From Eledone cirrhosa (lineage: Eukaryota): a stretch of 64,000 bases of DNA. The DNA is taken from positions 157,604,001 through 157,668,000 of the forward strand of contig OZ024741.1 of the NCBI GenBank assembly GCA_964016885.1, written 5' to 3'. Of this stretch, positions 8,157 to 38,730 are shown piece by piece. Made by a program: the position numbers and the translations under genes. Under the pieces are notes generated by a model, which ran no database searches, was not told the DNA's origin, and saw only the letters and a list, made by a program, of their open reading frames with translations. Position 1 is the first letter of the stretch; every line of letters starts with the position of its first letter.

Positions 8157-8340
8157 AATTGTTTCTACTTTAGGCACAAGGCCAGCAATTACCCAGTACA
8201 TTACTGGTACTTTATTTTATCGACCCCGTAAGGATGAAAGGCAAAGTTAACCTCAGCAGGATTTGAACTCAGACAGTAAAGGGACGTAACTCTATGCTGC
8301 AAAGCATGGCGTCCGACCCTCTACCGATACTGCCAATCCG
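8157..8340 (-). mobile_element. tRNA-derived SINE of the same family; further copies at 9552-9735(+), 11604-11780(+), 39408-39593(-)
   Basis: Same consensus as the 6168-7182 copies. Confidence 0.85.
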
Positions 8341-15199: not shown

Positions 15200-16331
15200 T
15201 CTATCTGTCAGTCACTCTGTCATTTGTTAGTCAGACCATCTATCAGTCTATTTATTAATCTGTCTATCAGTCAGTCAGTGTGTCTTTCTGTCCATCTATC
15301 TGTGAATTGTTAGCCTATCAGTCTGTCTATCAGTCTGTCTATTAGTCTGTCTATCAGTCTGTCTATCAGTCTGTCTATCAGTCTGTCTATCAGTCAGTCT
15401 ATCAATCAGTCTATCAGTCAGTCTACCAGTCTGTCTATCAGTCAGTCTATCAGTCTATCTATCAGTCTATCAGTCAGTCTATCAGTCTATCAGTCAGTCT
15501 ATCAGTCAGTCTATCAGTCTGTCTATCAGTCAGTCTATCAGTCTGTCTATCAGTCAGTCTATCAGTCAGTCTATCAGTCTATCAGTCTGTCTATCAGTCA
15601 GTCTATCAGTCTGTTTATCAGTCAGTCTATCAGTCTATCAGTCAGTCTATCAGTCAGTCTATCAGTCTGTCTATCAGTCAGTCTATCAGTCTGTCTATCA
15701 GTCAGTCTATCAGTCAGTCTATCAGTCTATCAGTCTGTCTATCAGTCAGTCTATCAGTCTGTTTATCAGTCAGTCTATCAGTCTGTCTATCAGTCAGTCT
15801 ATCAGTCTGTCTATCAGTCTATCAGTCTGTCTATCAGTCAGTCTATCAGTCTGTTTATCAGTCAGTCTATCAGTCTGTCTATCAGTCTGTCTATCAGTCA
15901 GTCTATCAGTCAGTCTATCAGTCTGTCTATCAGTCAGTCTATCAGTCTGTCTATCAGTCTATCAGTCAGTCTATCAGTCAGTCTATCAGTCTGTTTATCA
16001 GTCAGTCTATCAGTCTGTCTATCCGTCCGTTTATCAGTCAGTCTATCAGTCTATCAGTCTATCAGTCAGTCTATCAGTCTGTCTATCAGTCAGTCTATCA
16101 GTCTATCAGTCTATCTATCAGTCTATCAGTCAGTCTATCAGTCTGTCTATCAGTCAGTCTATCAGCCTATCAGTCAGTCTATCAGTCAGTCTACCAGTAT
16201 GTCTATCAGTCTGTCTATCAGTCAGTCTATCAGTCTATCAGTCAGTCTGTCTATCAGTCAGTCTGTCTATCAGTCTGTCTATCAGTCAGTCTATCAGTCT
16301 GTCTATCAGTCTACCAGTCTGTCTATCAGTC
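15200..16331. repeat. Compound (CTAT/CAGT/CTGT)n satellite, block 1 (degenerate left edge)
   Basis: Units CTATCAGT, CTGTCTATCAGT, CAGTCTATCAGT. Confidence 0.95.
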
Positions 16332-16527
16332 GCTGGGTAAGTTCTGCCTAAATTTCTATCGAAATTCCTAACTGTGAACCTTCATTTTTATATCAACTTG
16401 TAGAGGGACTGCCAGGTCAAACTTTCATCTGGTCAGTCTCTCAAAATATTCTACGCCTTTAGGCGAAATAGTATATAACAAGTTTTTTTTTTGGGGGGGG
16501 GGGGGGGGGCTAACATTTAAAAAAGAA

Positions 16528-18210
16528 ATGACTAAAGTTTCTTCACTAACATTCGAAGGAGGAAAGGGGAAGATATGCTTACAGCTTCCCCCTGCCACTG
16601 TCATAGTTACAGATGTCAACGACAAAGGTCAGCCAGAGGTAGAATTTGCCATGGCAACAAATCAAAACAACATAACCAGCGGCACCAGCAACAACAATGC
16701 TATGACCGAAAACACAACATCACAAATGAATTCTGCAACCACAGATAAAGCAATTGAGAACTACAACAACAACAACAACAACAATGACAACAACAACAAC
16801 AGCAACAATGATGACAACAACACCAACAGCAGCAACAATAATGACAACAACACCAACAAGAACAACTCCACAAACAAGGAAAAAAAGGTTTCGTTTGCAC
16901 AAACTGTCCAAAAGACTGACATCTCTAATGCCGGAGAATTGCTAAGAGATGCCAAGCAATATATAACTTTTGGGGAGAAGGGCGCTTTTAGCATCACTTC
17001 TCCCCAAGAATTGCGTAGAGACACTGTCCTGAAGACCATAGTTTTTAGGACAATCTCAAATACCACCAGAAAACCAGCTCAATTAACTCAAAACGAAATT
17101 GAGCTGGTTCTAAGAAACTCCATAAAGGACATTGCCTTCATACAGAAGGGAATACTCTTCGGGAGTTTATCAATAATAATGAAAGACCAATTGACGGCAC
17201 AGAAATATTCTGTGTCGCCAATTGTGTCCCCCCTCTACACCTTTTTCCCCACATACATGGGGAAAAGGAGCCAAAAAATAAAAATAAGCATCACACCAAA
17301 TGTAAACATCTGGTGGATAATAGCTGGTTTCATCAATTTTGATGAAGACACAATAATTTCGGTAGGAAAGTCCTCCAGGGGCATATTCAACGGTACAAGC
17401 TTAGAAGTTCTGGTCCAAATGAGACCAGAACGGATAGCTAGAATACCACAACGTGTGCCTCTCGATGGAAATTCCTACATAAACATTTCTGTTGAGGGTA
17501 GGCGGCCTTCATGTTACCACTGTTTAAGCAGTGGTCACCTGAGCGCTTCCTGTCCTCAATTAACTGCATTGAAAAAAAAGGCACTACTGCCGACACCCAA
17601 CACAACAACACAACCACTACCACCACCACAACAACAACAACAACACACAAAAACAAACCAGACTGCAAACACAGTCCCACCCAACCCCTCCCCACCTAAA
17701 ACAACTCCAGAAACACCCACACACATAACAGCTCCTCAAAATGTACCCCTCCCCAACAACACGGATGAGGCCTCATTATCGTCACCCAGTGACGATGAGG
17801 GAGAGCCTTTCCGACCAGTAAAAATAAAAAAGAAAAGACATAACACAAACAAAAATGCAACAAACACACAAACACCAATACAAGCGACGCAAACAGCACA
17901 AACAAAAACACCCCCTCCTGAAAACAAAACACCTACTACAAAACGTAAACACACACAAGAACCACAGAAAAAAAGCAACACAACACAACAAAAATGTTAC
18001 ACCTACATAAATACTAACAATAAAACTTTAACAGACACCATATATAAAAACCCTTCGGTCTCCACCGAAGGGAAAACTTTTACACACTCTGCGGAGAATC
18101 CTAATCTTAAAATGATTAGGATCTCCATGGACACACATAAACAGTTAAAGGAAAAATTTCCTAACGACGTAGGAACCCCTGCGTCAAACCCTATAACCGC
18201 GTCCTTTTGA
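16528..18210 (+). CDS. Copy A ORF1: poly-Asn N-terminus, CCHC knuckle, Pro/Thr linker, basic patch
   Basis: CYHCLSSGHLSASC; homologous to ORF1 of B and D; frameshift near 18180 (NRVLLK continues in another frame). Confidence 0.8.
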   Translation: MTKVSSLTFEGGKGKICLQLPPATVIVTDVNDKGQPEVEFAMATNQNNITSGTSNNNAMTENTTSQMNSATTDKAIENYNNNNNNNDNNNNSNNDDNNTNSSNNNDNNTNKNNSTNKEKKVSFAQTVQKTDISNAGELLRDAKQYITFGEKGAFSITSPQELRRDTVLKTIVFRTISNTTRKPAQLTQNEIELVLRNSIKDIAFIQKGILFGSLSIIMKDQLTAQKYSVSPIVSPLYTFFPTYMGKRSQKIKISITPNVNIWWIIAGFINFDEDTIISVGKSSRGIFNGTSLEVLVQMRPERIARIPQRVPLDGNSYINISVEGRRPSCYHCLSSGHLSASCPQLTALKKKALLPTPNTTTQPLPPPQQQQQHTKTNQTANTVPPNPSPPKTTPETPTHITAPQNVPLPNNTDEASLSSPSDDEGEPFRPVKIKKKRHNTNKNATNTQTPIQATQTAQTKTPPPENKTPTTKRKHTQEPQKKSNTTQQKCYTYINTNNKTLTDTIYKNPSVSTEGKTFTHSAENPNLKMIRISMDTHKQLKEKFPNDVGTPASNPITASF

Positions 18211-18511
18211 AATGTTTCCCCACCCCCACCCCAGACACTCCCACCCAGACGCCCAAACCCCACCTGACACCCCCTCCCCACCAAACATATCCGTCCCCAC
18301 CCCGCCAGAGACCACCACCCCACCAAAAAACCCCTCCAACACCCCCATGGAAATTGTGCAGCCTGGTCCCCAGGAGACGAAGAGAAACCACCACCCCATC
18401 AAACATACCCTCCAACACCTCCATGGAAATTGTGCAGCCTGATCCCCAGGAGACGAAGAGCCCGATACCCAGGACGCAGAGAGGTAAGTGCCTTTTCTCT
18501 TCACCACCAAC

Positions 18512-21500
18512 ATGGCTGTGCTAAGAGTAGGCTGTCTAAATGTGCGTGGCCTGGGCTCAACTTGGAAGCAAGCAGTGCTTCTAAATGACCTGAGGTCACA
18601 ACGTATAGATGTGATGGTTATTTGCGAGGCCCGGATCAGCAATGTGCGACAGCTGACCCCCACCTTTGATGACTTTGAGATGCACGCATCTCTCTGTCAG
18701 CCAGGAGGTGGGGGTGGGGTTGACGTTCTGCTGCAAAAACATCTGGGTTTCGCAACACAGATGGTACATTTGGACCCGGAGGGTCGACTAGGGGTTCTGG
18801 ACCTTGGCAGTGGTGAAGGCGGAGCGTTTAGGCTGGTAGCCGTCTACGGCCCTTTCGGGTCAACGCGGCCGGACTTCTTCCATCGTCTAGAGACTTTTCT
18901 GGGGACGTCCCGCTCCTTGCTATTAGTGGGGGACTGGAATGGTATCCTAGATGCACGTTAGGACTACGTAGGGGCCTGTCTCGATAGAGAGGGGTGTAAC
19001 AGCCTCAAAGGATTAATCGGTCGATTTGACCTGGCCGATAGATATCGACTAGATTTTCCGACTGCGCCAACCTGGACTTGGGCAAACCGCAACGGATCAT
19101 CTAGGTCGTACCTAGATAGGTTCTTAGTTAGAAATAAGGATAAGGACTTTGTAAGTTGTCCAAAAATGCTCATGGTTGGCTATTCAGTCCACAAGTTAGT
19201 GACCTGCATGGTCAACCTTGACAGAACGCATAAACAGGGACCCGGTTACTGGAAGCTCAACTTGTCCTTACCGGCAAGTAAGGCTTACGGGGACCGGATT
19301 AGCACTTTAGTTAAAGAGCTGTTGACGGGCGCCATCGTCAACAGCAGGTGGTGGGGATCTCTCAAAAGAGAGATTAGAATAGTCTCTATAGAATATAGTA
19401 AGGAGTTAGCCTCAATTAGAAATAGGAAGGAAAGGGAGTTGGTAGATAATGTAGAAGAGGCAATTAGAAGCGGTGACGTGGCCAGAGTACTAGCGTCGAG
19501 AACGGCCCTGGGCCAGTTTTTCATTGCAAAACACGAAGGCTGCATCGTGCGAAGCAAAATACGTACCCTGGGAAACGAGGGGACCAAAGCTGTTAGCTGG
19601 GCCCGCGTGACAGAAGCCAAAAGAGGGATTAGATCCACTATCCGGTCTTTGCGAGACCAGGATGGGCGGGTGATCCTTGAATCTAGGTAGATGTGGGAGG
19701 CTTTTCAAAAGCACCTTGCCAGATTGTTCGGAAGGGGCGGGGAGCCGATTGGGGAAGTGGACTTCGGTCCATACCTCGACGGCCTGCCGCGTCTCTCGGA
19801 TAGGGAGGCGAAGTCCTGCGAGGAGCCGATTTCAGCCGCTGAGATAGAGGACGTGCTGAGCCATTGCGGCAAACGCAAATCCCCGGGTCTCGATGGTCTT
19901 CCATACAAACTATATCTATCTATGCCAGACTTGTTCCCCGACCCCCTCAAGGCGGTCTACTGCAACTGGCAACAGAACGGGAGAATTGCCTGTGCTGTGA
20001 CCAAGGGCGTAGTCATGCTAGTGAGGAAGGACGAGAACAAGGGGGACGATATAAATAATTTCAGGCCCATAACTCTGCTAAATACAGAGTTACAGATTTT
20101 GGCCAAGATGCTAGCAAAGAGGTTGGCGCTTGTCGTGGGCAACCTGGTGGGAGATGCGCAGACATGTGCTATCCCGTCTAGGTCCATCCACGACAACCTC
20201 CACCTCATGCGATACATCATAGAGAGGGTTGGGAACGAACCCAGCTTTGGTGGGGCCCTGATCTACTTGGATCAATATAAGGCGTTCGATAGGGTCGACC
20301 ATGGTTACCTGGATGCGGTGCTAGCGGCGGCAGGCTTCGGACCCGTTTTCAGGGGCTGGATCAATGCCATGCACAGCAGCCGCATCTGCTCTAGGGTCAA
20401 AGTGAACGGCTACCTCTCGGAGCCGTTCGAAATCGCGCGGTCCATCCTCCCCTCTGTATGTAATGACTCTAGAGCCACTGCTGCGGAAGTTGGAGTTGTT
20501 GCAGGGCATCCCGTTGGAACCGGGATTGCGGAAAGCGGCGTCGGCCTACGCCGATGACGTAACAGTAATGGTGTCGATGGCCTCCCAAATCGGGGCGATC
20601 GGCACCTTACTGGAGGAGTACGAAAGGTTTACAGGGGCTAAGCTGAACCAGGACAAGTCGATCGGCCTGCAACTCGGCACGTGGAGGGGCAAATCGATGC
20701 CCTCCGATGGCGTCGTCGGGCGCCGGTGAAGTTGCTCGGGGTCTGGTTCGGACCAGACCTCCAGGTGGAGAAGAACTGGGGTGAGGTAACGAACAGGGTG
20801 TTTGCACTGACCCAGAAGTGGGCCGAGTGCAAACTATCCCTGAAAGGTCGGGCGGACACTTCTATAGCGTCCGTCATCTACTACCGCATGACCGTCGTGC
20901 CTTGTCCAAGGGAAACGCTAGCCAAAATGGAGCGCGCGCTCTTCCAATTCCTTTGGAAGAAGTGGGCTCCTATGGTCAACACCCTTCGAAAGGAAGGCTG
21001 GGGATGCCGTGGCTAATGATACGTAAACACGCATTAAGGCTACGGCACCTCCAGGTATTCCTCACCGGTCAACCGGTGTGGGCCCCGTTTGCGAGCCTTT
21101 CCCAGACTCGTCTCGCTCACCGAGCTGCAATCCTGGGTCAAGCAAAGACCGAGAAAACTGGGCGCCTGGCACACCGTGTGTGCCCAGGCGCTCACGACTC
21201 TCTGGCAGGCGGACCCGGCTGTCAGTGGAGAATCCACCTCGTCATTCTATAGAGGGCTGGTGGTTAGCAGGTGCGACGACGCCCTCGAAGAAGCCCTAGG
21301 CATGGAGGAAGACGAACTGGCCAACCTGTTCGGTAGAACATTCAGCCCGGGACCCATGGATAACTTCCAGAGGTCCCTGGCCTGGCAGTGCTACCGAGGG
21401 GCTCTTCCCGTTCGAGAAAGGCTCTACAGACACGGGCGCCCGGGTAGGGACCCCTCGAAAAAGATCTGTCCCAGATGCGTGTGCGACGAAGAAACCGTTG

Positions 21501-21881
21501 CACACGCATTGGTACACTGCTCGCATTGCCGATCTGTGGGGCTATGTCGAACAACTGCTGTCAAGGGTGGGACCGATCCGGTTGACCACCGAGTCTATTG
21601 TAACGATCAAGCGCCCTCCCCTCTTCAAAAACAAAGATGAAACGGTGTTTCTGTGCGTAATAGCCATGGCGAAAGAGGTTGTATGGTGGACGCGTCTGAA
21701 AGGACTGAGGTCAGACACCTTTCTCTCTGGCCAACAACTGGTCCGTTTCTTCCGATATCATTTCGGAAGAAGGATCAAGATGGAGAGAGAGGTGCTGCAC
21801 CCCAGCCGTTTTTATGAAAGATGGCTGAAAGTGGCGAGAATGGCCCGTGTGAATGGGCCTTCACTCTACATCAGACTATAG
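18512..21881 (+). pseudogene. Copy A ORF2 (APE endonuclease, RT, Cys-His motif), broken by stops and deletions
   Basis: CLNVRGL, GDWN, KSPGLDGLP, FRPITLLN, KAFDRVDH, AYADDV, CPRC..ETVAHAL; stops at 18961 and 19690; several frameshifts. Confidence 0.9.
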
Positions 21882-22128
21882 GTGAGAAATATGAAAGATC
21901 AAGGGAGCACCCCCTCTCTGTGCTCCTGAGGAGAAGAGTTGCACACTTTTTTCGGGGGGGGGGGGGGGGGGTACGACCCCCCAAGGCGCCTCTTCCCTAT
22001 TGAGGATTTTGTTATTAAATTTATATCTTGTTATTGCCTCCTCCTTATTGAGGACGCCTTTTTATGTAAACTCCTTCCATTGTACTTGTCCCACTCTTTG
22101 ATGCCATGGTAGCAAATAAAAAGGAAGT

Positions 22129-23121
22129 TAGTCTATCAGTCTATCAGTCTGTCTATCAGTCTATCAGTCTGTCTATCAGTCTATCAGTCTGTCTATCAGT
22201 CTACCAGTCTGTCTATCAGTCTACCAGTCTGTCTATCAGTCTACCAGTCTGTCTATCAGTCTATCAGTCTGTCTATCAGTCTATCAGTCTGTCTATCAGT
22301 CTGTCTATCAGTCTGTCTATCAGTCTACCAGTCTGTCTATCAGTCTGTCTATCAGTCTGTCTATCAGTCTACCAGTCAGTCTATCAGTCTGTCTATCAGT
22401 CTGTCTATCAGTCTACCAGTCTGTCTATCAGTCTATCAGTCTGTCTATCAGTCTATCAGTCTGTCTATCAGTCTACCAGTCTGTCTATCAGTCTACCAGT
22501 CTGTCTATCAGTCTACCAGTCTGTCTATCAGTCTATCAGTATGTCTATCAGTCTACCAGTCAGTCTATCAGTCTGTCTATCAGTCTGTCTATCAGTCTAC
22601 CAGTCTGTCTATCAGTCTGTCTATCAGTCTGTCTATCAGTCTACCAGTCAGTCTATCAGTCTGTCTATCAGTCTGTCTATCAGTCTATCAGTCTGTCTAT
22701 CAGTCTACCAGTCTGTCTATCAGTCTATCAGTATGTCTATCAGTCTACCAGTCAGTCTATCAGTCTGTCTATCAGTCTGTCTATCAGTCTATCAGTATGT
22801 CTATCAGTCTACCAGTCTATCTATCAGTCTGTCTATCAGTCTGTCTATCAGTCTGTCTATCAGTCAGTCTATCAGTCTGTCTATCAGTCAGTCTATCAGT
22901 CAGTCTATCAGTCTGTCTATCAGTCTACCAGTCTGTCTATCAGTCTATCAGTATGTCTATCAGTCTACCAGTCAGTCTATCAGTCTGTCTATCAGTCTGT
23001 CTATCAGTCTACCAGTCAGTCTATCAGTCTGTCTATCAGTCTGTCTATCAGTCAGTCTATCAGTCTATCAGTATGTATATCAGTCTATTAGTCTGTCTAT
23101 CAGTCTATCTATCAGTCTATC
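22129..23121. repeat. Satellite block 2 (rich in CTACCAGT and CAGTATGT variants)
   Basis: Direct reading. Confidence 0.95.
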
Positions 23122-23323
23122 TTGATAGAGTGAGACACGCTTCACATCGGCTCTGCTATTCTATCGGAATTTACCCTTACTATAGTAAGTACCAGTGAAT
23201 TTTTTCAGTGCAACACATTTGGAACACTTACCCCTGTTATTTAGGGAAACATTTTTACATTTACCCCCTTTTTAGGGGGTAAAATAAATAACTATTTTTC
23301 TGTAAAACTTCTTTCTTGGACGC

Positions 23324-26300
23324 ATGGCGGGAAAGATGGCAGACATGTTTGCCATTAGCTCTGCCACGCCCCCCAAGTCTGAAGAACAAAAAATGGATAC
23401 AACAAAACTAGACAACGAAACAAACAAGGAAAATGAAAAAACAAATGTTACGGAAAATGAGCAAACGGAAAACAAACAAACAGAAAATAAGAATACAAAA
23501 AACAACAAGGCAACTTTCGCCCAGACAACAAAAAAATCTATAATATATACACCTATTGACTTAACTGCTGCCAGAGAGAAACTGGCAGAAGCAAAAAAGC
23601 ACATAGTCTTGGGGGAGAACGGAATGTTTTCCATTAATCCACCCCCACCCACCCACCCAGAATTCAAGAAAACGAGACTAGAAAACACTGTTCTGTTTAG
23701 AACAATTCTAAACCACACGAGAAAGCCAGCACAACCCAGCCAAATGGAGATAGAGTTGGTCCTAAAAGACTATATGAAGAATATTCTCTTCATACGAAAG
23801 GACCGACTCTATGGCAGCATTTCTGTTTTAACAAAAGACAAGGAAACAGCACAGAGGCTTTCCCTAAGCCTACTCTCATCAACAGCATACAGTTTCTATC
23901 CCTCCTACATGGGTAGAAGAACTCAGAGAGTCAAAATACAGACAATGCTGCCCACAATGGACTTCTGGTGGGCTATTGCTGGCTTCATAGACATGGGCGA
24001 GGACACAGTGCTGTCAATGGGGAAGGCATCTGGAGATGCGTTCCTGGGAATGGGCCTCGACCTACTAGTCCAAATGAGGCCCGAAAGAATAGCGCAAATC
24101 CCGGATCGCATCTGGCTGGATGACCTCACCCCAATATATATAATTGTAGAGGGGAGAAGACCAGCATGCTATTCATGCACGGAAAGGGGACACGTTAAGG
24201 CTAACTGCCCGAATCGTATCCCCCAAAAAGGACTATTGCCCACACCCACCACAAACAGTACACCAACACCACCCACCTCCAAAAATACACTAATACCACA
24301 CACAGCAAACAAAATACAGACACCACCAACCACAAGCACAACACAAACATCACCACCACCAGCGCCAAACACAAGCACGACACAAAAATCACCACCACCA
24401 TCACCAACCATAACACAAACATCACCACCACCATCACCAACCACAAGCACGACACAAACATCACCACCACCACCACCACAAAACACATTCCAAACTAATA
24501 ATAAAAAAAACAGCAACAAATCTACCCCTCCCGCAAAAAAAAAACAACCAGACACCACGTCCCTCCCACCTAGCGCTGAAGAGTTTCCCCCAACTTCTGA
24601 AGAAGAAGGAGGAGAAGCCTTCAGACAAGTTAAAAGAAAAAAACGAAAGCACACACCCAGCACACCACAACAACAAATAACCCACACACAAACACCAACT
24701 CCAATCAAAAACACACCACCCTCGACAAAAAAAAATAAATCTGCGCCTCCCCTCTTCGAAACATTGACAGCATCACAAAAAAAGACTTCACAATACACAT
24801 ATATAAATAAAGAAAACAAAAAACTGTTTAAATTAATAAACAATAGCCCTTTGGTGCAGAGCGAAGGGCCAAACTTTATCTCAACAAAGAACTTCGCCCA
24901 TTTAAAAATGATAAAGGTCCCTCTGGACCTTTATCGTTCCTTAAAAGAACAATTTAAACAGGACGTGAGCCCCCCCCCCCCTCCCCCCTGTTTAAAACCG
25001 TTAAATCGCGTCCTCTTGAAAGATTTCCCCATAACCTCCCTGACACAACTCCAAATACCCCAACCCACCACACTCGGATACCCCCACACCACCACAAAAC
25101 ATCCCTCCACCCAACACACCCGACCCCATGGAAATTACACAACCCGGAGAGGTAGGTGCTTTTCTTTCTTCACTTTCAACACCAAAATAGATCAATTGAG
25201 AGTTGGCTGTTTGAATGCGCGTGGCCTGGGCTCAGCTTGGAAGCAAGCAAAGCTTCTAAGTGACCTCAGGTCACGAAGTATAGATGTGATGGTTGTTTGC
25301 GAGAGTCGGATCAGCAGCGTGCGACAGCTGGCTCCCGCCTTCGATGACTTTGAGATGCACGCATCTCTCTGTCAACCCGGAGGCGGGGGTGGGGTTGCCG
25401 TACTGCTGGATAAACGTCTGGCTCTCGACGTACAGATTGTTCACTCGGACCCGGGGGGTCGATTACTGGTGCTGGACGTCGGAGGCGGTGAAGGCGGGGC
25501 TTTCAGACTGGTCGGTCTTTATGCCCCCTTCGGGGCTGAAAGAGCCGACTTCTTCCAGCGTCTGGAGACTTTTCTAGGAACGTCGCGTTCCCTGCTTTTA
25601 GTGGGGGACTGGAATGGAATCCTAGATGCGTGTTGGGACTATGCAGGGGCATGTCCCGATAGAGGGGGGTGTAGCAGCCTCAAGCGGTTACTCCATCGAT
25701 TCGACCTGGTCGATAGATTTCGACTAGATTTTCCAACTGTGCCAACCTGGACCTGGGCAAACCACAGTGGTCAATCTAGATCGTACTTAGATAGGTTTTT
25801 GGTTAGGAGTAAGGATAGGGACGTATTTAGTTGTCCAGAATTGCTCATGGTTGGCTATTCAGATCACAAATTAGTGACCTGCGTGGTCAACCTTGATAGA
25901 ACGCATAGACAGGGTCCCGGTTACTGGAAGATGAACTTGTCCTTGCCGGCAAAGGAAGCTTACAGGAACCGGATTAGTAGCTTAGTTAAGATGCGGTTGA
26001 CGGGAGCGATCGTCAACAGCAGGTGGTGGGTATCTCTAAAGAGAGAGATTAAAGTAAGTTCGATAGGTTACAGTAAGGAACTAGCGGCGAATAGAAATAG
26101 GAGGGAAAGGGAGTTGACAGATAAACTAGAAGAGGCGATTAGGAGCGGAGACGTGGCCAGAGTGTTAGCGTCGAGAACGGCGTTGAGCCAGTTCTTTGAC
26201 GCGAAGCACGAAGGCTGCGTTGTCCGAAGTAAAATTCGTGCTTTAGGAAACGAGGGGACCAAAGCTGTTAGCTGGGCCTGCGTGACAGAAGCCAAGAGTG

Positions 26301-26593: not shown

Positions 26594-28600
26594 CTATGCC
26601 GGTCTTGTTCTCCGAACTCCTCGAGGCTGTCTATTGCAACTGGCAACAGAACGGGAGAATTCCCTGTTCTGTGATCAAGGGCGTAGTCACGCTAGTGAGG
26701 AAGGACGAGAGCAAGGGGGGCGACTTAAGTAACTTTAGGCCCATAACTCTGCTGAATGCAGAGTTACAGATTTTGGCCAAGGTGTTGGCGAAGAGGTTGG
26801 CGCTTGTGGTGGGTGGTTTGGTGGGAGACGCGCAGACATGCGCTATCCCGTCCAGATCCATTTACGACAACCTCCTCCTCATGCGATACATCGTAGAGAG
26901 GGTTGGGAACGAACCCGGCTTTGGTGGGGCCCTGATCAACTTGGATCAATCTAAGGCGTTCGATAGGGTCGACCATGGCTACCTGGATGCGGTGCTAGCG
27001 GCGGCGGGCTTCGGACCCGTTTTCAGGGGCTGGATTTCTGCCATGCACAGTGGCAACGTCTGCTCTAGGGTTAAAGTAAACGGCTACCTCTCGGAGCCGT
27101 TTCAAATCACCCTTCTCCTCCCTTCTGTACGTATTGGCTCTCGAGCCACTGCTGCGGAAGTTGGAGTTGCTGCGGGGCATACCCCTGGAACCGGGATTGC
27201 ACAAAGCGGTCTCGGCCTATGCCGACGACGTAACAGTAATGGTGGCGGACGCCTCAGAAATCGGGGCGATCGCCACCCTACTGGAGGAATACGAAAGGCT
27301 GACGGGGGCTAGGCTGAAACGGGACAAGTCAGTCGGTTTGCAACTCGGAACGTGGAGGGGCAAACCGATGCCGTTAGACGGTGTCGTCGGGCGGTGGACG
27401 GAGGGCCCGGTGAAGCTGCTCGGGGTCTGGTTCGGACCGGACCTCCAGGTGGAGAAGAATTGGGGCGAGGTGACGAGCAGGGTGTTTGCGCTGACCCAGA
27501 AGTGGGCCAAGTGCAAACTATCACTGAAAGGTCGGGCGGAGGTGACGAACGCTTACATAGCGTCCGTCATCTACTACCGCCTGACCGTCGTGCCTTGCCC
27601 CAAGGAAACGCTCACCATCATGGAGCGCATGCTCTTCCAGTTCCTCTGGAAGAAGCGGCCTCCCATGGTGAGGAGATCCATATGCTGCCAGCACTCTTCG
27701 AAAGGAGGGCTGGGTATGCCGTGGCTGTTGATGCGTAGGCACGCATTGAGGCTACGGCATCTACAGGTATTCCTCAACGGTCAGCCGGTGTGGGCCCCGT
27801 TTGTGAGGCGAGCCTTCCCACAGCTCGTCTCGCTCACCGAGCTGCAATCCTGAGTCAAGCAAAGACCGAGAAAACTGGGCAACTGGCACACCGAGTGTGC
27901 CCAGGCGCTCACGGCTATCTGGCAAGCGGACCCGACTGTCAGTGGAGAATCCACCTCGACATTCTATAGAGGGCTGGTGGCTAGCAGGGGCGACGACACC
28001 CTTGGAGAGTCGCTAGGCATGGAGGAGGACGAACTGGCCAGCCTGTTCGGTAGAACTTTCGGCCCGGGACCCATGGACAACTTCCAGAGGTCCCTAGCCT
28101 GGCAGTGTTACCGGGGGGCTCTGCCCGTTCGAGAAAAGCTCTACAGACACGGGCGCCCGGGCAGAGATCCAGCGAAAAAGATCTGTCCCAGATGCGTGCG
28201 CGACGAGGAAACCGTTGCGCATGCACTGGTACACTGCCCCGGCGTTGCCGATCTGTGGGGCTACGTCGAACGACTGCTGTCGCGTGTGGCGCCGATTCGA
28301 TTAACCGCCGAGTCTGTGGTGAACATCAAGCCGCCTCCTCCCTTCAGAAACGAAGCAGAAGCGGTCTTTCTGTGCGTAATAGCCATGATGAAAGAGGTTG
28401 TGTGGTGGACGCGCCTGAAAGGTCTGAGGTCGGGTGACTTTCTCTCCGGCCATCACCTGGTTTACTTCTTCCGATACCACTTCGGAAGAAGGATCAGGAT
28501 GGAGAGAGAAGTGCTTGGCCCCAGACAGTTTCATGAAAGGTGGGTGAAAGAAGCGAGAATGGCTCGTGTAAATGGGCCTTCTCTCTACATTGTTCTGTAG
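26368..28600 (+). pseudogene. Copy B ORF2 RT and C-terminal region, disrupted
   Basis: Frameshifts near 26410 and 27110; stop at 27853. Confidence 0.88.
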
Positions 28601-28831
28601 GTGAAGAAGTGAAGAGGAAAGGGGGAGCGCCTCCTCTCTGGGCTTCCCCTGCGAAAAGGGTTGCACACTTTTCGGGGGTATGTGCAATCCCGAACACGCC
28701 CCCTCCCTTTTGAGGACTTTTTATTATTATATTATTATTGTTATTCCTTTTTCTTTACTCGATTTATGTAAACTCCCCCACTGTGTATTTGTCCCCCTCT
28801 TTTGTGCCCTCGTGGCAAATAAATAGAAATG

Positions 28832-29437
28832 TATCTATCAGTCAGTCTATCAGTCTGTCTATCAGTCTATCAGTCTGTCTATCAGTCTGTCTATCAGTCT
28901 ATCAGTCTGTCTATCAGTCAGTCTATCAGTCTGTCTATCAGTCTGTCTATCAGTCTATCAGTCTGTCTATCAGTCTGTCTATCAGTCTATCAGTCTATCA
29001 GTCTGTCTATCAGTCTGTCTATCAGTCAGTCTATCAGTCTATCAGTCAGTCTATCAGTCTATCAGTCTATCAGTCTGTCTATCAGTCTGTCTATCAGTCT
29101 GTCTATCAGTCTATCAGTCTGTCTATCAGTCAGTCTATCAGTCTGTTTATCAGTCTGTCTATCAGTCTATCTATCAGTCAGTCTATCAGTCTGTCTATCA
29201 GTCTGTCTATCAGTCTATCAGTCTATCAGTCTGTCTATCAGTCTGTCTATCAGTCAGTCTATCAGTCTATCAGTCAGTCTATCAGTCTGTCTATCAGTCT
29301 ATCAGTCTGTCTATCAGTCAGTCTATCAGTCTGTCTATCAGTCAGTCTATCAGTCTATCTATCAGTCTGTCTATCAGTCAGTCTATCAGTCAGTCTATCA
29401 GTCTATCAGTCAGTCTATCAGTCTGTCTATCTGTCTA
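28832..29437. repeat. Satellite block 3
   Basis: Direct reading. Confidence 0.95.
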
Positions 29438-32400
29438 GATCATCTAGATCGTACCTAGATAGATTTTTACTTAGAAATAAGGACAGGGACTTTTTAAGTT
29501 GTCCAGAAATGCTCATGGTTGGCTATTCAGACCACAAGTTGGTGACCTGCATGGTCAACCTTGATAGAACGCATAGACAGGGCCCCGGTTACTGGAAGCT
29601 CAACTTGTCCTTGCCGGCAAGTAGAGCCTACAGGAATCGGATTAGTACGTTAGTTAAGGAACGGTTGACTGGAGCGATCGTCAACAGCAGGTGGTGGGTA
29701 TCTCTAAAGAGAGAGATTAGAGTAGTCTCGATTGAATTTAGTAAGGTTCTAGCTGCGGATAGGAATAGGAAGGAAAGGGAGCTAATAGATAGAGTAGAAG
29801 AGGCAATTAGAAGCGGCGACGTGGCCAGAGTGCTAGCGTCGAGAACGGCTTTGAGCCAGTTTTTCGACGCGAAGCACGAAGGCTGCGTTGTCCGAAGTAA
29901 AATACGTGCTCTAGGGAACGAGGGGACCAAAGCTGTTGGCTGGGCCCGCGTGACAGAGGCCAACAGTGGAACTAAATCCACCATCCGGTCTTTGCGAGAC
30001 CTGGATGGACGGGCGATTCTTGAGCCGAAGCAGATGTGTGAGGCCTTTCAAAGGCACTTTGCCCGACTGTTCGGGAGGGGCGGGGAGCCGGTTGGGAACG
30101 TGGACTTCGGTCCATACCTCGACGGCCTGCCGCGCCTCTCGGACAGGGAGGCGAAGTCCTGCGAGGAGCCGATTTCGGCCGCTGAGATAGAGGACGTGCT
30201 GAGCCAATGCGGCAAACGCAAATCCCCGGGTCTCGATGGTCTTCCTTACGAATTATATCTAGCTATGCCGGACTTGTTCCCCGATCTCCTCGAGGCGGTC
30301 TACTGCAACTGGCAACAGAACGGGAGAATTCCCTGTACTGTGACCAAGGGCGTAGTCACGCTAGTGAGGAAGGACGAGAACAAGGGGGACGAAATAAGTA
30401 ACTTCAGGCCCATAACTCTGCTAAATACAGAGTTACAGATTTTGGCCAAGGTGCTAGCAAAGAGGTTGGCGCTTGTCGTGGGCAACCTGGTGGGAGATGC
30501 GCAGACATACGCTATCCCGTCCAGGTCCATCCATGACAACCTCCACCTCATGCGATACATCATAGAGAGGGTTGGGAACGAACCCGGCTTTGGTGGGGCT
30601 CTGATCAACTTGGATCAATCTAAGGCGTTCGATAGGGTCGACCATGGTTACCTGGATGCGGTGCTAGCGGCGGCAGGCTTCGGACCCGTTTTCAGGGGCT
30701 GGATCACTGCTATGCACAGCAGCCGCATCTGCTCTAGGGTCAAGGTGAACGGCTACCTCTCGGAGCCGTTCAAAATCGCGCGGTCCATCCGACAAGGGTG
30801 CCCTCTCTCCTCCCTTCTGTATGTGTTGACTCTCGAGCCACTACTGCGGAAGTTGGAGTTGTTGCAGGGCATCCCTTTGGAACCGGGATTGCGGAAAGCG
30901 GTGTCAGCCTACGCCGATGACGTGACAGTAATGGTGTCGACGGCCTCCGAAATCGAGGCGGTCGGCACCTTACTGGAGGAGTACGAAAAGTTCACAGGGG
31001 CTAAGCTGAACCGGGACAAGTCGATCGGTTTGCAACTCGGCACGTGGAGGAGCAGACCGATGCCCTCCGATGGCGTCGTCGGACGCTGGACGGAGGGCCC
31101 GGTGAAGTTGCTCGGGGTCTGGTTCGGACCGGACCTCCAGGTGGAGAAAAACTGGGCGGAGGTTACGAACAGGGTGTTTGCACTGACCCAGAAGTGGGCC
31201 AGTTGCAAACTATCCCTGAAAGGTCGGGCGGAGGTGGCGAACACTTATATAGCGTCCGTCATCTACTACCGCCTGACCGTAGTGCCCTGCCCAAGGGAAA
31301 CCCTCACCAAGATGGAGCGCGCGCTCTTCCAATTCCTTTGGAAGAGGCGGGCTCCTATGGTGAGGAGATCCATCTGCTGTCAACACCCTTCGAAAGGAGG
31401 GCTGGGGATGCCGTGGCTAATGATGCGTAAACACGCATTAAGGCTACGGCACCTCTACGTATTCCTCACCGGACAACCGGTGTGGGCCTCGTTTGTGAGA
31501 CGAACCTTTCCCAGACTCGTCTCACTCACCGAGCTGCAATCCTGGGTCAAGCAAAGACCGAGAAAACTGGGCGCCTGGCACACTGAGTGTGCCCAGGCGC
31601 TCAACGCCCTCTGGCAGGCGGATCCGGTTATCAGTGGAGACTCCACCGCAACATTCTATAGAGGGCTGGTACGCAGCAGGTGCGACGACGCCCTCGGAGA
31701 AGCCCTAGACATGGAGGAGGACGAACTGGCCAGCCTGTTCGGTAGGACATTCAGCCCGGGACCTATGGACAACTTCCAGAAGTCCCTGGCCTGGCAGTGC
31801 TACCGAGGGGCTTTACCCGTTCGAGAAAGGCTCTACAGACACGGGCGCCCGGGTAGGGACCCCGCCAAAAAGATCTGTCCCAGATGCGTGTGCGACGAGG
31901 AAACCGTTGCACACGCATTGGTACACTGCTCGGGCGTAGCCGATCTGTGGGGCTATGTCGAACAACTGCTGTCAAGGGTGGGACCGATCCGGTTGACCAC
32001 CGAGTCTATTGTAATGATCAAGCCGCCTCCCCCCTTCAAAGATGAAGCAAACCGGTGTTTCTGTGCGTAATAGCCATGGCGAAAGAGGTTGTATGGTGGA
32101 CGCGTCTGAAAGGACTGAGGTCAGGCACCTTTCTCTCTGGCCAACAACTGGTCCGTTTCTTCCGATATCATTTCGGAAGAAGGATCAGGATGGAGAGAGA
32201 GGTGCTGCACCCCAGTCGTTTTTATGAAAGGTGGGTGAAAGTTGCAAGAATGGCCCGTGTGAATGGGCCTTCTCTTTACATAAGCCTGTAGGTGGAAAAG
32301 AGGAAGGAACGAGGGAGCACCCCCTCTCTGTGCTCCTGGGGAAAAGGGTTGCACACTTTTTTCGGGGGTGTGTGCGACCCCCCAAGGCGCCTCCTCTCTA

Positions 32401-32555
32401 TTGAGGATTTTGTTAAAAATTTTATTTTTTGTTATATCTTATTTTATTTTTATATTTTGTTATTGCCTCCTCCTTATTGAGGACGCCTTTTTGTGTAAAC
32501 TCCCCCCTTTGTACTTGTCCCACTTTTGATGCCCTAGTGGCAAATAAAAGAAACT
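29438..32555 (+). mobile_element. L1/Tx1-type copy C, 5'-truncated within the endonuclease; RT core intact
   Basis: Starts at GATCATCTAGATCG (equivalent to D 35272); intact IRQGCPLS and YADD; 1-bp frameshift near 32050; AATAAA at 32543-32548. Confidence 0.92.
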
Positions 32556-32634
32556 TATCAGTCTGTCTATCAGTCTATCAGTCAGTCTATCAGTCTGTCT
32601 ATCAGTCAGTCTATCAGTCTATCTATCAGTCTGT
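32556..32634. repeat. Satellite block 4 (short spacer between C and D)
   Basis: Direct reading. Confidence 0.95.
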
Positions 32635-32812
32635 TTAAATTCATACGGAAATTGTAAACTGTAAACTTTCATTTTTGTACCATTTTGTAGAGGGACTGCC
32701 AGGTCAAATTTTGATCTGGTCGGTCTCTCAAAATATTCTGCGCCTTTGGGCGAAATAGTATTGTGAACATTTTATCTTTCGAAAAACTTCGAAAAACCCT
32801 ATTTTGAGAAAA

Positions 32813-32989
32813 ATGGCTGAAGCATCTTCACCATCAATCAAAGAAAGAAAAGGGAAGTCATACTCACAGCTTCCCCCTGCCACTGTCACAGCAGCAGATG
32901 CCAAAGGCAGAGGTCAGAGAGAGGAAGAATTGTCTTCACCTGTTGACCGACCACTAGATGTAGCCACAACTACACAAGAATTTGAAAAC

Positions 32990-33020
<31 letters not shown>

Positions 33021-34664
33021 GCAACAATAAAGACAACAAAAACAACAACACAAACGTCACAAGTATCCACACACGAAACGAGAAAGACAACAACAACAAC
33101 AAAGATGAAAACAACTCAAACGACGAGAAACAAAACAATACTAATATCCAAAACGAAAACAAAATATCTTTTGCACAAACGGCTAAATTATCAGTCGCTT
33201 ATGTGCTGGAAGATATTTCAAAAGCAAAAGAAATGCTGGAAAAAGCCAAGAAATATGTCTTTTGGCGAAAACGGTTCGTTTTCTATACATTCACCTCCGG
33301 AGCTAAAAAGACAGACGGAATTACGAACTGTCGTATTCCGAACAATTTTAAATAAAACAAAGAAACCAGCGCAACCATCTCAAGCGGAAATTCAGTTAGT
33401 CTTGAAAGACGCGATGAGAGACATCACTTTCATACAAAAGGATAAACTCTATGGGAGTTTATCCATATTGATGAAAGACGAATTGGCGGCAAAAAAATAC
33501 TCTGTGTCGCCAATTCGGTCCACACACTACACCTTCTTCCCCACCTACATGGGTAAAAAAACCCAGAGGATATGGATAACCACCATCACCCCAAACATAA
33601 ACTACTGGTGGTTACTAACCGGTTTCCTCAATTTAGACGAGGACAACCTCATCTCAATAGGGAAGGCATCCGGCGACGCGTTCAGTGGAACGAGCCTCGA
33701 AGTTCTGACCCAAATAAGGCCAGAACTCATCGCCCAAATTCCTGAGCGCGTCATGCTGGATGACCGTACCCACCTCAACATTATTGTGGAGGGTAGGCGT
33801 CCCTCCTGTTACCTCTGTGGCAATAGAGGCCACCTGAGGGCTGCCTGTCCCCAGCTCACACAGAAAAAAACACTGCTACCAACACCAACACCACCCCAAC
33901 TACAACAACAAAAACAACCACAACAACAACAAAAACCAACAACCCCACCACCACCACCACAACAACAACAACAACAAACACGTGAAAAAATAACACAGAA
34001 TACTGTCCCACCCAATCCCTCCCCACCCAAAACAAATACAAAAACACGCACACCGCAAACACTACCAGAAAACATACCCCTCCCACCCAACAAGGAAGAC
34101 GAACCTCTTTCGTCGCAAGACGAAAAAGATCCCTTCCAACAAGTAAAAAGAAAGAAGAGGAGACGCACCACAGACACACATGTTAACTTTAATCCCCCCC
34201 AAGAGAACACAAACTACACACAAACCACCCCTCCCTGTCACACAACACTAACTGCTACACAAAAAAAGACCTTACAATACACATACATGAACACAGACAA
34301 CAAAGAATTACGGAAAACAATTTCAGCAAACCCTTCGGTCCAAACTGAAGGGCCAAACTTTATAACTGCTGTGGGACTACCTCATTTGAAAATGATAAAA
34401 GTCCCAATGCACTTGTACAAAACACTGAAAATAAATTTCACGGAGGACGTGGGCCCCCCCCCCCCCTGCGCCAAACCAATCAACCGCGTCCTCCTAAAAA
34501 ATTTCACCCCCCCACCCCACCCAGACACCCACTCAACGACAAACACCCCAACCCCACAACACACCGATGCCCCTTCACTTCCACAAACCACCACCCCACC
34601 CAACAACCCATCCCCAACCAGCATGGAAATTGAGCGGCCCGTTTCCCGGGACGCAGAGAGGTAA
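32813..34664 (+). pseudogene. Copy D ORF1 with one frameshift near 33260
   Basis: MAEASS...KKYV in one frame, FGENGSFSI...CYLCGNRGHLRAAC...DAER* in the next. Confidence 0.8.
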
Positions 34665-34688
34665 GTGCCTTTTCTCTTTACCACCAAC

Positions 34689-37600
34689 ATGGCTGTGCTA
34701 AGAGTAGGGTGTCTAAATGCGTGTGGCCTGGGCTCGTCTTGGAAGCAAGCAATGCTTCTAAATGACCTCAGGTCACAATCTATAAATGTGATGGTTATCT
34801 GCGAGGCCCGGATCAGCAGCATGCGACAGCTAGCCCCCACCTTTGACGACTTTGAGATGCACGCATCTCTCTGTCAGCCCGGAGGTGGGGGTGGGGTTGT
34901 CGTTCTGCTGCAAAAACATATGGGCCTTGCAACACAGATAGTTCACTTGGACCCAGGGGGTCGACTGGTGGTGCTGGACCTTGGCAGTGGTGAAGGTAGA
35001 GCCTTTAGGCTGATAGCCGCATATGCCCCTTTTGGGACAGAGCGGCCCGACTTTTTCCAGCGTCTGGAGTCTTTTCTAGGGACGTCCCGTTCCCTGCTTT
35101 TAGTGGGGGATTGGAATGGTATCCTGGATGCACGTTGGGACTATGCAGGGGCATGTCCCGATAGAGAGGGGTGCAACAGCCTCAAGGGGTTACTCGGCCG
35201 ATTTGACCTGGCCGATAGATTTCGACTAGATTTTCCGACGGTGCCAACCTGGTCTTGGTCAAATCGCAGCGGATCATCTAGATCGTACCTAGATAGATTT
35301 TTACTTAGAAATAAGGACAGGGACTTTTTAAGTTGTCCAGAAATGCTCATGGTTGGCTATTCAGACCACAAGTTGGTGACCTGCATGGTCAACCTTGATA
35401 GAACGCATAGACAGGGCCCCGGTTACTGGAAGCTCAACTTGTCCTTGCCGGCAAGTAGAGCCTACAGGAATCGGATTAGTACGTTAGTTAAGGAACGGTT
35501 GACTGGAGCGATCGTCAACAGCAGGTGGTGGGTATCTCTAAAGAGAGAGATTAGAGTAGTCTCGATTGAATTTAGTAAGGTTCTAGCTGCGGATAGGAAT
35601 AGGAAGGAAAGGGAGCTAATAGATAGAGTAGAAGAGGCAATTAGAAGCGGCGACGTGGCCAGAGTGCTAGCGTCGAGAACGGCTTTGAGCCAGTTTTTCG
35701 ACGCGAAGCACGAAGGCTGCGTTGTCCGAAGTAAAATACGTGCTCTAGGGAACGAGGGGACCAAAGCTGTTAGCTGGGCCCGCGTGACAGAGGCCAACAG
35801 TGGAACTAAATCCACCATCCGGTCTTTGCGAGACCTGGATGGACGGGCGATTCTTGAGCCTAAACAGATGTGTGAGGCCTTTCAAAGGCACTTTGCCCGA
35901 CTGTTCGGGAGGGGCGGGGAGCCGGTTGGGAACGTGGACTTCGGTCCATACCTCGACGGCCTGCCGCGCCTCTCGGACAGGGAGGCGAAGTCCTGCGAGG
36001 AGCCGATTTCGGCCGCTGAGATAGAGGACGTGCTGAGCCAATGCGGCAAACGCAAATCCCCGGGTCTCGATGGTCTTCCTTACGAATTATATCTAGCTAT
36101 GCCGGACTTGTTCCCCGATCTCCTCGAGGCGGTCTACTGCAACTGGCAACAGAACGGGAGAATTCCCTGTACTGTGACCAAGGGCGTAGTCACGCTAGTG
36201 AGGAAGGACGAGAACAAGGGGGACGAAATAAGTAACTTCAGGCCCATAACTCTGCTAAATACAGAGTTACAGATTTTGGCCAAGGTGCTAGCAAAGAGGT
36301 TGGCGCTTGTCGTGGGCAACCTGGTGGGAGATGCGCAGACATGCGCTATCCCGTCCAGGTCCATCCATGACAACCTCCACCTCATGCGATACATCATAGA
36401 GAGGGTTGGGAACGTACCCGGCTTTGGTGGGGCTCTGATCAACTTGGATCAATCTAAGGCGTTCGATAGGGTCGACCATGGTTACCTGGATGCGGTGCTA
36501 GCGGCGGCAGGCTTCGGACCCGTTTTCAGGGGCTGGATCACTGCTATGCACAGCAGCCGCATCTGCTCTAGGGTCAAGGTGAACGGCTACCTCTCGGAGC
36601 CGTTCAAAATCGCGCGGTCCATCCGACAAGGGTGCCCTCTCTCCTCCCTTCTGTATGTGTTGACTCTCGAGCCACTACTGCGGAAGTTGGAGTTGTTGCA
36701 GGGCATCCCTTTGGAACCGGGATTGCGGAAAGCGGTGTCAGCCTACGCCGATGATGTGACAGTAATGGTGTCGACGGCCTCCGAAATCGAGGCGGTCGGC
36801 ACCTTACTGGAGGAGTACGAAAAGTTCACAGGGGCTAAGCTGAACCGGGACAAGTCGATCGGTTTGCAACTCGGCACGTGGAGGGGCAGACCGATGCCCT
36901 CTGATGGCGTCGTCGGACGCTGGACGGAGGGCCCGGTGAAGTTGCTCGGGGTCTGGTTCGGACCGGACCTCCAGGTGGAGAAAAACTGGGCGGAGGTTAC
37001 GAACAGGGTGTTTGCACTGACCCAGAAGTGGGCCAGTTGCAAACTATCCCTGAAAGGTCGGGCGGAGGTGGCGAACACTTATATAGCGTCCGTCATCTAC
37101 TACCGCCTGACCGTAGTGCCCTGCCCAAGGGAAACCCTCACCAAGATGGAGCGCGCGCTCTTCCAATTCCTTTGGAAGAGGCGGGCTCCTATGGTGAGGA
37201 GATCCATCTGCTGTCAACACCCTTCGAAAGGAGGGCTGGGGATGCCGTGGCTAATGATGCGTAAACACGCATTCAGCCCGGGACCTATGGACAACTTCCA
37301 GAAGTCCCTGGCCTGGCAGTGCTACCGAGGGGCTTTACCCGTTCGAGAAAGGCTCTACAGACACGGGCGCCCGGGTAGGGACCCCGCCAAAAAGATCTGT
37401 CCCAGATGCGTGTGCGATGAGGAAACCGTTGCACACGCATTGGTACACTGCTCGGGCGTAGCCGATCTGTGGGGCTATGTCGAACAACTGCTGTCATGGG
37501 TGGGACCGATCCGGTTGACCACCGAGTCTATTGTAATGATCAAGCCGCCTCCCCCCTTCAAAGATGAAGCAGAGGCGGTGTTTCTGTGCGTAATAGCCAT

Positions 37601-37814
37601 GGCGAAAGAGGTTGTATGGTGGACGCGTCTGAAAGGACTGAGGTCAGGCACCTTTCTCTCTGGCCAACAACTGGTCCGTTTCTTCCGATATCATTTCGGA
37701 AGAAGGATCAGGATGGAGAGAGAGGTGCTGCACCCCAGTCGTTTTTATGAAAGGTGGGTGAAAGTGGCGAGAATGGCCCGTGTGAATGGGCCTTCTCTTT
37801 ACATAAGCCTGTAG
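34689..37814 (+). CDS. Copy D ORF2 (APE endonuclease-RT-Cys/His), open but with a 312-bp in-frame deletion
   Basis: MAVLRVGCLN, GDWN, YLDR, YSDH, QGCPLS, YADD, CPRC..HALVHC; KHA joins FSPGP at 37270 relative to copy C. Confidence 0.9.
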   Translation: MAVLRVGCLNACGLGSSWKQAMLLNDLRSQSINVMVICEARISSMRQLAPTFDDFEMHASLCQPGGGGGVVVLLQKHMGLATQIVHLDPGGRLVVLDLGSGEGRAFRLIAAYAPFGTERPDFFQRLESFLGTSRSLLLVGDWNGILDARWDYAGACPDREGCNSLKGLLGRFDLADRFRLDFPTVPTWSWSNRSGSSRSYLDRFLLRNKDRDFLSCPEMLMVGYSDHKLVTCMVNLDRTHRQGPGYWKLNLSLPASRAYRNRISTLVKERLTGAIVNSRWWVSLKREIRVVSIEFSKVLAADRNRKERELIDRVEEAIRSGDVARVLASRTALSQFFDAKHEGCVVRSKIRALGNEGTKAVSWARVTEANSGTKSTIRSLRDLDGRAILEPKQMCEAFQRHFARLFGRGGEPVGNVDFGPYLDGLPRLSDREAKSCEEPISAAEIEDVLSQCGKRKSPGLDGLPYELYLAMPDLFPDLLEAVYCNWQQNGRIPCTVTKGVVTLVRKDENKGDEISNFRPITLLNTELQILAKVLAKRLALVVGNLVGDAQTCAIPSRSIHDNLHLMRYIIERVGNVPGFGGALINLDQSKAFDRVDHGYLDAVLAAAGFGPVFRGWITAMHSSRICSRVKVNGYLSEPFKIARSIRQGCPLSSLLYVLTLEPLLRKLELLQGIPLEPGLRKAVSAYADDVTVMVSTASEIEAVGTLLEEYEKFTGAKLNRDKSIGLQLGTWRGRPMPSDGVVGRWTEGPVKLLGVWFGPDLQVEKNWAEVTNRVFALTQKWASCKLSLKGRAEVANTYIASVIYYRLTVVPCPRETLTKMERALFQFLWKRRAPMVRRSICCQHPSKGGLGMPWLMMRKHAFSPGPMDNFQKSLAWQCYRGALPVRERLYRHGRPGRDPAKKICPRCVCDEETVAHALVHCSGVADLWGYVEQLLSWVGPIRLTTESIVMIKPPPPFKDEAEAVFLCVIAMAKEVVWWTRLKGLRSGTFLSGQQLVRFFRYHFGRRIRMEREVLHPSRFYERWVKVARMARVNGPSLYISL

Positions 37815-38078
37815 GTGGAAAAGAGGAAGGAACGAGGGAGCACCCCCTCTCTGTGCTCCTGAGGAAAAGGGTTGCACACTTTTTTCGGGGGTGTGTGCGA
37901 CCCCCCAAGGCGCCTCCTCTCTATTGAGGATTTTGTTAAAAATTTTATTTTTTGTTATATCTTATTTTATTTTTATATTTTGTTATTGCCTCCTCCTTAT
38001 TGAGGACGCCTTTTTGTGTAAACTCCCCCCTTTGTACTTGTCCCACTTTTGATGCCCTAGTGGCAAATAAAAGAAACT

Positions 38079-38730
38079 TATCAGTCTGTCTATCAGTCTA
38101 TCAGTCTGTCTATCAGTCAGTCTATCAGTCAGTCTATCAGTCTATCAGTCAGTCTATCAGTCTGTCTATCAGTCTGTCTATCAGTCTATCAGTCAGTCTA
38201 TCAGTCTGTCTATCAGTCTATCAGTCAGTCTATCAGTCTGTCTATCAGTCAGTCTATCAGTCTATCAGTCAGTCTATCAGTCAGTCTATCAGTCAGTCTA
38301 TCAGTCTATCAGTCTGTCTATCAGTCTGTCTATCAGTCTGTCTATCAGTCTGTCTATCAGTCTATCAGTCTGTCTATCAGTCTGTCTATCAGTCTGTCTA
38401 TCAGTGTATCAGTCAGTCTATCAGTCTGTCTATCAGTCTGTCTATCAGTCTATCAGTCTGTCTATCAGTCTATCAGTCTGTCTATCAGTCTGTCTATCAG
38501 TCTATCAGTCTGTCTATCAGTCTATCAGTCTGTCTATCAGTCTATCAGTCTGTCTATCAGTCTGTCTATCAGTCTATCAGTCTGTCTATCAGTCTATCAG
38601 TCTGTCTATCAGTCTATCAGTCTGTCTATCAGTCTGTCTATCAGTCTATCAGTCTGTCTATTAGTCTATCAGTCTGTCTATCAGTCTGTCTATCAGTCTA
38701 TCAGTCTGTCTATCAGTCAGTCTGTATCTA
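38079..38730. repeat. Satellite block 5 (right end of the array)
   Basis: Direct reading. Confidence 0.95.

Follow-up and report, generated by a model that had tools for sequence, protein, structure and literature searches.

Insertion at TATCT, mostly within (TATC)n/(GATA)n repeats, by a likely Tx1-clade retrotransposon lineage of the octopod Eledone cirrhosa

The targeting of microsatellites by Tx1 elements is already known. Sections of PMC4494074 and PMC3812793 describe Kibi and Koshi, which occupy (TC)n and (TTC)n in teleosts, and crocodilian Tx1 elements on (TTCC)n/(TTTC)n. Passages of PMC3812793 also list Waldo at (ACAY)n, Mino at (AC)n and Dong at (TAA)n as non-LTR elements (those lacking long terminal repeats, LTRs) that insert into microsatellites, one tetranucleotide included. 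Here we analyse a 64,000-nucleotide stretch of the Eledone cirrhosa genome (assembly GCA_964016885.1, contig OZ024741.1, positions 157,604,001 to 157,668,000 of the forward strand), referred to below as the window, in which four long interspersed nuclear elements (LINEs), A to D, lie in a satellite of CTAT/CAGT/CTGT monomers. Like Kibi, Koshi and the crocodilian elements, these are LINEs, likely of the Tx1 group, with an apurinic/apyrimidinic (AP) endonuclease (APE) that lie in fixed orientation in a microsatellite, but their target is TATCT/(TATC)n and their host is an octopod. Waldo, Mino and Dong belong to other clades, R1 and R4, and have other targets. A further relative, Tx1L of Xenopus laevis (P14381), is likewise target-specific and has a second open reading frame (ORF2) composed of APE, reverse transcriptase (RT) and zinc finger, but its site lies in the Tx1D transposon. 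From junctions counted over the whole genome we conclude, with considerable confidence, that the Eledone family prefers TATCT as its target, mostly within (TATC)n/(GATA)n repeats, and that (TA)n comes a weak second.

The evidence comes chiefly from the subfamily to which C and D belong. Its exact 22-base 3′ end, searched for genome-wide, occurs 366 times, and the bases that come next are TATC or TATA in 357 cases. TATCT follows 309 of the ends (84%, derived by subtraction) and TATCTATC follows 227 (62%), the base preceding TATCT being variable. The other ends run into TATA (44), into TATC followed by a base other than T (4, all of them TATCA) or into something else (9); TATCA, the commonest junction in the satellite, is thus disfavoured genome-wide. 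These counts support the proposal, made in an initial annotation of the window, that the family is target-specific, and both percentages lie above the Kojima threshold, under which a single type must make up more than 20% of the flanks (as given in part of PMC4494074). Background frequencies come from 400 kb of the four largest contigs, sampled at even intervals as 40 pieces of 10 kb, which contain 56 hits to TATCTATC (140 per Mb), 1,747 to TATCT and 10,368 to TATATATA (25,920 per Mb). Expressed as rough ratios, the junctions are enriched ~8,900-fold for TATCTATC and ~390-fold for TATCT, and the use of TATCTATC per site is roughly 950 times that of TATATATA.

In the B subfamily, 678 ends are followed by N-TATC-H, and among the first 100 of these listed TATCT is present in 99 (no denominator was taken). 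Among sampled loci, TATCT follows 29 of 30 B-like ends and 22 of the 29 A-like ends that could be recognised, one of the 30 A-like loci having been dropped for want of a 3′ end. The A-like and B-like samples are best-scoring hits and therefore lean towards young copies; the 40 D-type loci sampled all lie on the minus strand of contigs 1–4. The compound satellite is the 3′ flank of none of the 40 D-type loci and, outside the window, of none of 28 A-like and none of 29 B-like loci. Searched with a slightly shorter anchor, TATCAGTC stands after just two C/D 3′ ends, those of C and D themselves. Across the genome, then, most copies are flanked by TATCT and not, as first expected, by the compound satellite.

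To characterise complete insertions, 7 kb was fetched around the 40 D-type hits and around 20 copies picked for a flank other than TATCTATC. The 5′ flanks of the 40 D-type copies comprise 21 with at least two TATC units, 4 with one TATC, 4 with a TA-run and 11 others. Target-site duplications of 15–34 bp are present at the 5′ junction in 7 of the 20 chosen copies and duplications of 7–8 bp in 4, with none clear in the remaining 9. These seven, together with loci L047 and L053, provide nine long duplications, whose lengths include 1–5 bases of possible microhomology: 34 bp in L233, where the site is inside a minisatellite, 20 bp in L230, 19 bp in L053, 18 bp in L234, 17 bp in L237, 16 bp in both L232 and L240, 15 bp in L235 and 10 bp in L047. 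Both copies of the duplication start with TATCT in all nine cases, and 3′ flanks in unique DNA repeat the 5′ flank exactly. With TATCT heading the duplication on either side, the motif predates the insertion and is no appended tail. No poly(A) follows the 3′ end in any of the 40 D-type copies. In a folding test run with no control, the terminal 67–69 nt of A, B and D formed only weak structures unlike one another. The fixed 3′ end, the 5′ truncation and the target-site duplications are scars from target-primed reverse transcription (TPRT).

Within the window, the CTAT/CAGT/CTGT monomers build one satellite of 3,397 bp, which the four LINE copies split into five blocks:

15260..16331, + strand: satellite block 1, CTAT/CAGT/CTGT monomers, with a degenerate edge from ~15200
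16332..22128, + strand: element A, near full-length, decayed; atypical 3′ junction of AAGT with TAGTCTATC
22129..23121, + strand: satellite block 2, whose terminal TATCTATC doublet adjoins element B
23122..28831, + strand: element B, with a full-length head that starts as in L106, L123, L124 and L127; 3′ flank TATCTATCAGTC
28832..29437, + strand: satellite block 3
29438..32555, + strand: element C, young, 5′-truncated, beginning within the endonuclease domain; 3′ flank TATCAGTC, a non-doublet site
32556..32634, + strand: satellite block 4, 79 bp, containing the TATC^TATCAGTCTGT doublet that is the landing site of D
32635..38078, + strand: element D, young; 3′ end AATAAAAGAAACT without poly(A)
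38079..38725, + strand: satellite block 5

The four elements lie on the same strand with all eight junctions in the satellite, as initially annotated, and the earlier coordinates proved correct to a few bases. When the elements were searched against the window by BLASTN and tblastn, no further copy turned up beyond 16332–38078, confirming that the 64 kb holds no other. The (TA)n, (GT)n and (CT)n tracts, whose emptiness had been set against the occupied satellite, are truly free of copies, but the window outside the array offers only 15 TATCTATC/GATAGATA 8-mers. Identities are 88.5% for A/C, 82.5% for A/B, 84.6% for B/C and 99.0–99.4% for C/D. As A, B and C/D are only 82–88% alike, they represent three subfamilies and stem from no fewer than three insertions, which bears out the view that these were independent events and rules out a single duplication as the source of all four copies.

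All four copies are damaged. In A, the ORF1 frame spans 16378–18210, and ORF2, from an ATG at 18512 to ~21881, carries stops and frameshifts; judged by eye against the L034-type head, A seems short of ~30 nt at its 5′ head. In B, ORF1 starts with an ATG at 23324, and ORF2 (~25187–28600) contains frameshifts and one stop. The 5′ truncation of C is confirmed, its start corresponding to nt 2682 in a full-length genomic copy of 5,800 nt, and there is a 1-nt deletion at ~32050. D is without ~44 nt of the 5′ head; its ORF1 (ATG at 32813) has a 2-nt deletion at ~33256, and its ORF2 (34689–37814) has an open frame but has suffered a 312-nt in-frame deletion at 37274. Pfam identifies Exo_endo_phos (the APE), RVT_1 and zf-RVT domains in D ORF2, whose endonuclease has an R-to-C change close to its first catalytic motif. 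Elsewhere, ORF2 is open over its full length of 1,150–1,153 codons in 15 of the 40 copies sampled. Loci L034, L037 and L045 (also L032, L051, L052 and L059) join a D-type 3′ half (~99%) to a different 5′ head or ORF1 region; this mixed make-up points to recombination between subfamilies.

The 5′ untranslated regions of A (16337–16402) and D (32632–32690) and the head of L044 contain an intron-like stretch of ~65 nt, running from GTAAGT to a pyrimidine-rich TTGTAG, which is retained in A and the D-type copies although the region is only ~65% alike. A splice-donor-like GAGAG/GTAAGT also closes ORF1 directly before the start of ORF2 in D (~34660) and A (~18485), with GTAGGT in B (~25150).

The compound satellite exists at this locus only: all 103 matches to a satellite 21-mer and all 21 matches to a 40-mer in the 3.0-Gb genome fall in the window. 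It holds 291 TATC units on one strand and none on the other, with only 8 TATCTATC doublets. That it gathered four copies is likely due to these ~290 same-strand TATC units, and the satellite is likely a decoy, or chance mimic, for a family that seeks (TATC)n. B occupies the first unit of a TATCTATC doublet and D the point where the units of another doublet meet; the apparent duplications measure 12 bp for B and 11 bp for D, duplications within repeats being ambiguous. For two of four elements to lie at doublets, which account for ~14 of 288 satellite sites, P is ~0.013, a post hoc figure. The site of C is an unremarkable TATCAG, and that of the old element A is TAGTC. Block 2 has a higher-order pattern of its own, with CTAC and ATGT variant monomers; its absence from blocks 3–5 indicates that the blocks went on evolving separately after the insertions.

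Several observations weigh against TATCT as the preferred target. Three of the four local 3′ flanks are off-consensus, TATCA following C and D and TAGTC following A. Among the 40 D-type 5′ flanks, 11 are neither TATC nor TA-like, 5 of these belonging to recombinant or interrupted copies. The background estimate rests on just 56 TATCTATC hits per 400 kb. Moreover, two C/D-type copies in a 3.4-kb array with ~8 TATCTATC sites far exceed the genome-average rate of 227 insertions per ~420,000 estimated sites, and this excess means that array context or local re-insertion must contribute. We consider it likely that long-array context or local re-insertion is involved in the clustering.

In this connection, C is possibly, though rather doubtfully, a local offshoot of D that predates D's 312-nt loss and arose by re-insertion of a read-through RNA from D, by tandem duplication within the satellite or by gene conversion. 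The two have in common one variant present in none of the 30 other copies covering the site, a kind of sharing found in 9 of 595 pairs, and they account for two of the four TATCA junctions genome-wide. In addition, the first 28 nt of their 3′ flanks are identical, a stretch that 29 of 278 satellite sites have. On the other hand, their 18 differences in 2,819 sites equal the average of this young subfamily (mean pairwise divergence 0.63% among 33 copies). Three other copies are equally close or closer to C, 17 outrank C in closeness to D, and C has an exclusive variant in common with L239 too.

By analogy with established TPRT biology, the ORF2 endonuclease would nick the GATA strand at 5′-AGATA^N-3′, the RT would prime at the nicked strand, and a staggered second nick some 7–20 bp off would create the duplication. 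The specificity is most likely set by the endonuclease, with possible help from the pairing of read-through RNA. In alignments, the catalytic motifs of this enzyme line up with their counterparts in Tx1L and human L1, and precedents for an endonuclease as the target determinant are described in parts of PMC1919474, PMC7265360 and PMC4494074. Because the duplication restores the target, copies can stack head to tail, and head-to-tail stacks with TATC spacers are present at further loci (L058, L106, L123, L124 and L127). At G000:C3:217897443-217909000 and G000:C2:33300726-33312296, three 3′ ends are evenly spaced at ~5.77 kb, which may reflect tandem duplication or serial insertion.

A sister lineage is represented by L251, L259 and L261, where (ATT)n follows the 3′ end in 3/3 sampled copies, the end being AATAAAGAAAAC (AATACA in L261); the lineage is ~70% alike in DNA and its ORF2 is 60–73% identical. 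It was met three times by chance in the 400-kb background sample and is therefore abundant. A splice-donor-like AAG/GTAAGT stands at the end of ORF1 in this lineage (L259, ~1057).

It is unlikely, though worth weighing, that the specificity comes largely from RNA–DNA pairing. On this account, a transcript running past the 3′ end into the TATC flank of its donor would anneal to the nicked target, and a loosely specific endonuclease would yet give a sharp target. The absence of poly(A) from all 40 copies favours pairing, as does the position of AATAAA only ~7 nt before the end, from which transcripts would be expected to run into the flanking TATC. So does the (ATT)n-ending sister lineage, which is near-identical at the hairpin that we take to confer specificity (WTWTNRIGSSRSYLDRV versus WSWSNRSGSSRSYLDRF); we presume its position from an alignment with human L1. 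Annealing of this kind has precedents in SART1Bm and R1Bm (in part of PMC7265360). Against this, sections of PMC1919474 and PMC7265360 report that swapped endonucleases alter the target in SART1/TRAS1 and that the Tx1L endonuclease is specific. In R1Bm, recognition is spread across many residues, so that a similar hairpin is no proof of the same specificity, and correction towards TATCT was not observed in the 3′ copy of any duplication. The endonuclease and RNA-pairing models are inseparable by genomic data, and both may act.

A bolder extension, which we rate as improbable, would have an octopod radiation of Tx1-related elements switching between (TATC)n and (ATT)n mainly via RNA, each copy inheriting its landing site from its own position. 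C, as a daughter of D, would then have been steered to TATCA, a junction normally shunned, by the satellite-bearing RNA of D, and the target would be reprogrammable by the RNA tail.

It is very improbable that there is no targeting at all, the elements either appending a (TATC)n tail or persisting only in microsatellites. Some copies, such as L057, do have long (TATC)n on the 3′ side only, but the duplications in unique DNA that begin with TATCT hold no extra repeat, the copies are young, diverging by 0.6% on average, and their junction is exact to the nucleotide. Weakest of all is the initial proposal that the lineage recognises the compound satellite itself (CTATCAGT-type repeats): it would account for four insertions in 3.4 kb and for TATCAGTC after both C and D, but it is ruled out by the genome-wide counts, the satellite being a single locus that holds only 2 of the 366 C/D ends and leaves 364 elsewhere, no sampled copy outside it having a satellite flank, and B and D having chosen rare plain doublets within it.

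The elements have the architecture of APE-type non-LTR elements of the L1 group, with an upstream ORF1 (in L044 giving a weak zf-CCHC match, under the Pfam cut-off) and an ORF2 that carries an AP endonuclease at the N terminus, an RT and a zinc finger at the C terminus. The closest relative of solved structure is human L1 ORF2; for the RT region, Xenopus Tx1L gives the higher score (232 bits, as opposed to 143 bits for human L1). A careful RT tree was built from 31 hand-picked rows, which include plant L1 but neither an animal L1 reference nor a Repbase set. In this tree, the lineage, Tx1L and the fish Tx1 proteins fall into one group of 20 rows (96/96), from which plant L1 is separate. Within this group the lineage joins a protein of Argonauta hians (66% identity across the RT region) and unnamed proteins ~50–55% identical in that region (100/99), on a branch of its own that the named Tx1 proteins do not share, in agreement with an 80-row quick tree. 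The relationship to Tx1 claimed at the outset is thus upheld in that the tree groups the lineage with vertebrate Tx1, though outside the named Tx1 branch. Given a tree without animal L1, membership of the Tx1 clade is likely rather than proven.

The lineage is sister to the branch of Tx1L, to which its RT is 35% identical, and the fish proteins; identity with the vertebrate Tx1 proteins tested is only 33–38%. We rejected identity with Kibi or Koshi, as the target is TATCT and the lineage falls outside the branch holding fish Tx1 proteins. Further relatives, 38–55% identical, come without names or flanks. A metagenome scan for relatives gave 71 loci, mostly 21–37% identical, and matches in the ESM Atlas were to generic APE–RT clusters only. 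Parts of PMC13282606 report 80 annotated L1-Tx1 families in Octopus vulgaris, 13 of them recently active, and the present lineage may be among them; the word ‘target’ is absent from the searched portions of its main text and supplement.

No LINE with a TATC or GATA target was found in the literature searched, whose scope did not extend to Repbase, Dfam or the Tx1-target list of PMC4494074; the available portions of PMC4640811 and PMC3747384 add nothing on such a target. (TATC)n/(GATA)n can be added to the few microsatellites known as LINE targets, backed by genome-wide counts and by duplications defined to the base. Target change in such retrotransposons is called not well understood in part of a review (PMC3812793), and the (TATC)n lineage and its close (ATT)n sister are a natural pair for studying how APE retrotransposons change target. 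The locus also suggests that a compound satellite can serve as a decoy. As a site-specific integrator the element is less attractive than had been suggested: the 5-base core TATCT occurs ~13 million times in the genome, so that insertion is aimed at a repeat class and at no single site.

Other repeats in the window lie apart from the array. The (CAC)n and (GGT/GAT)n arrays at 54383–55698 and 7511–8730 are long and degenerate, and show a higher-order periodicity of 94–145 bp. Two short tandem clusters of a 190–230-bp repeat, at 6556–7165 and 53123–53883, are in opposite orientations; the repeat resembles an octopus short interspersed nuclear element (SINE). Finally, a reverse transcriptase fragment of unrelated type (Pfam RVT_1), presumably CR1-like from its appearance, lies at 61449–62063.

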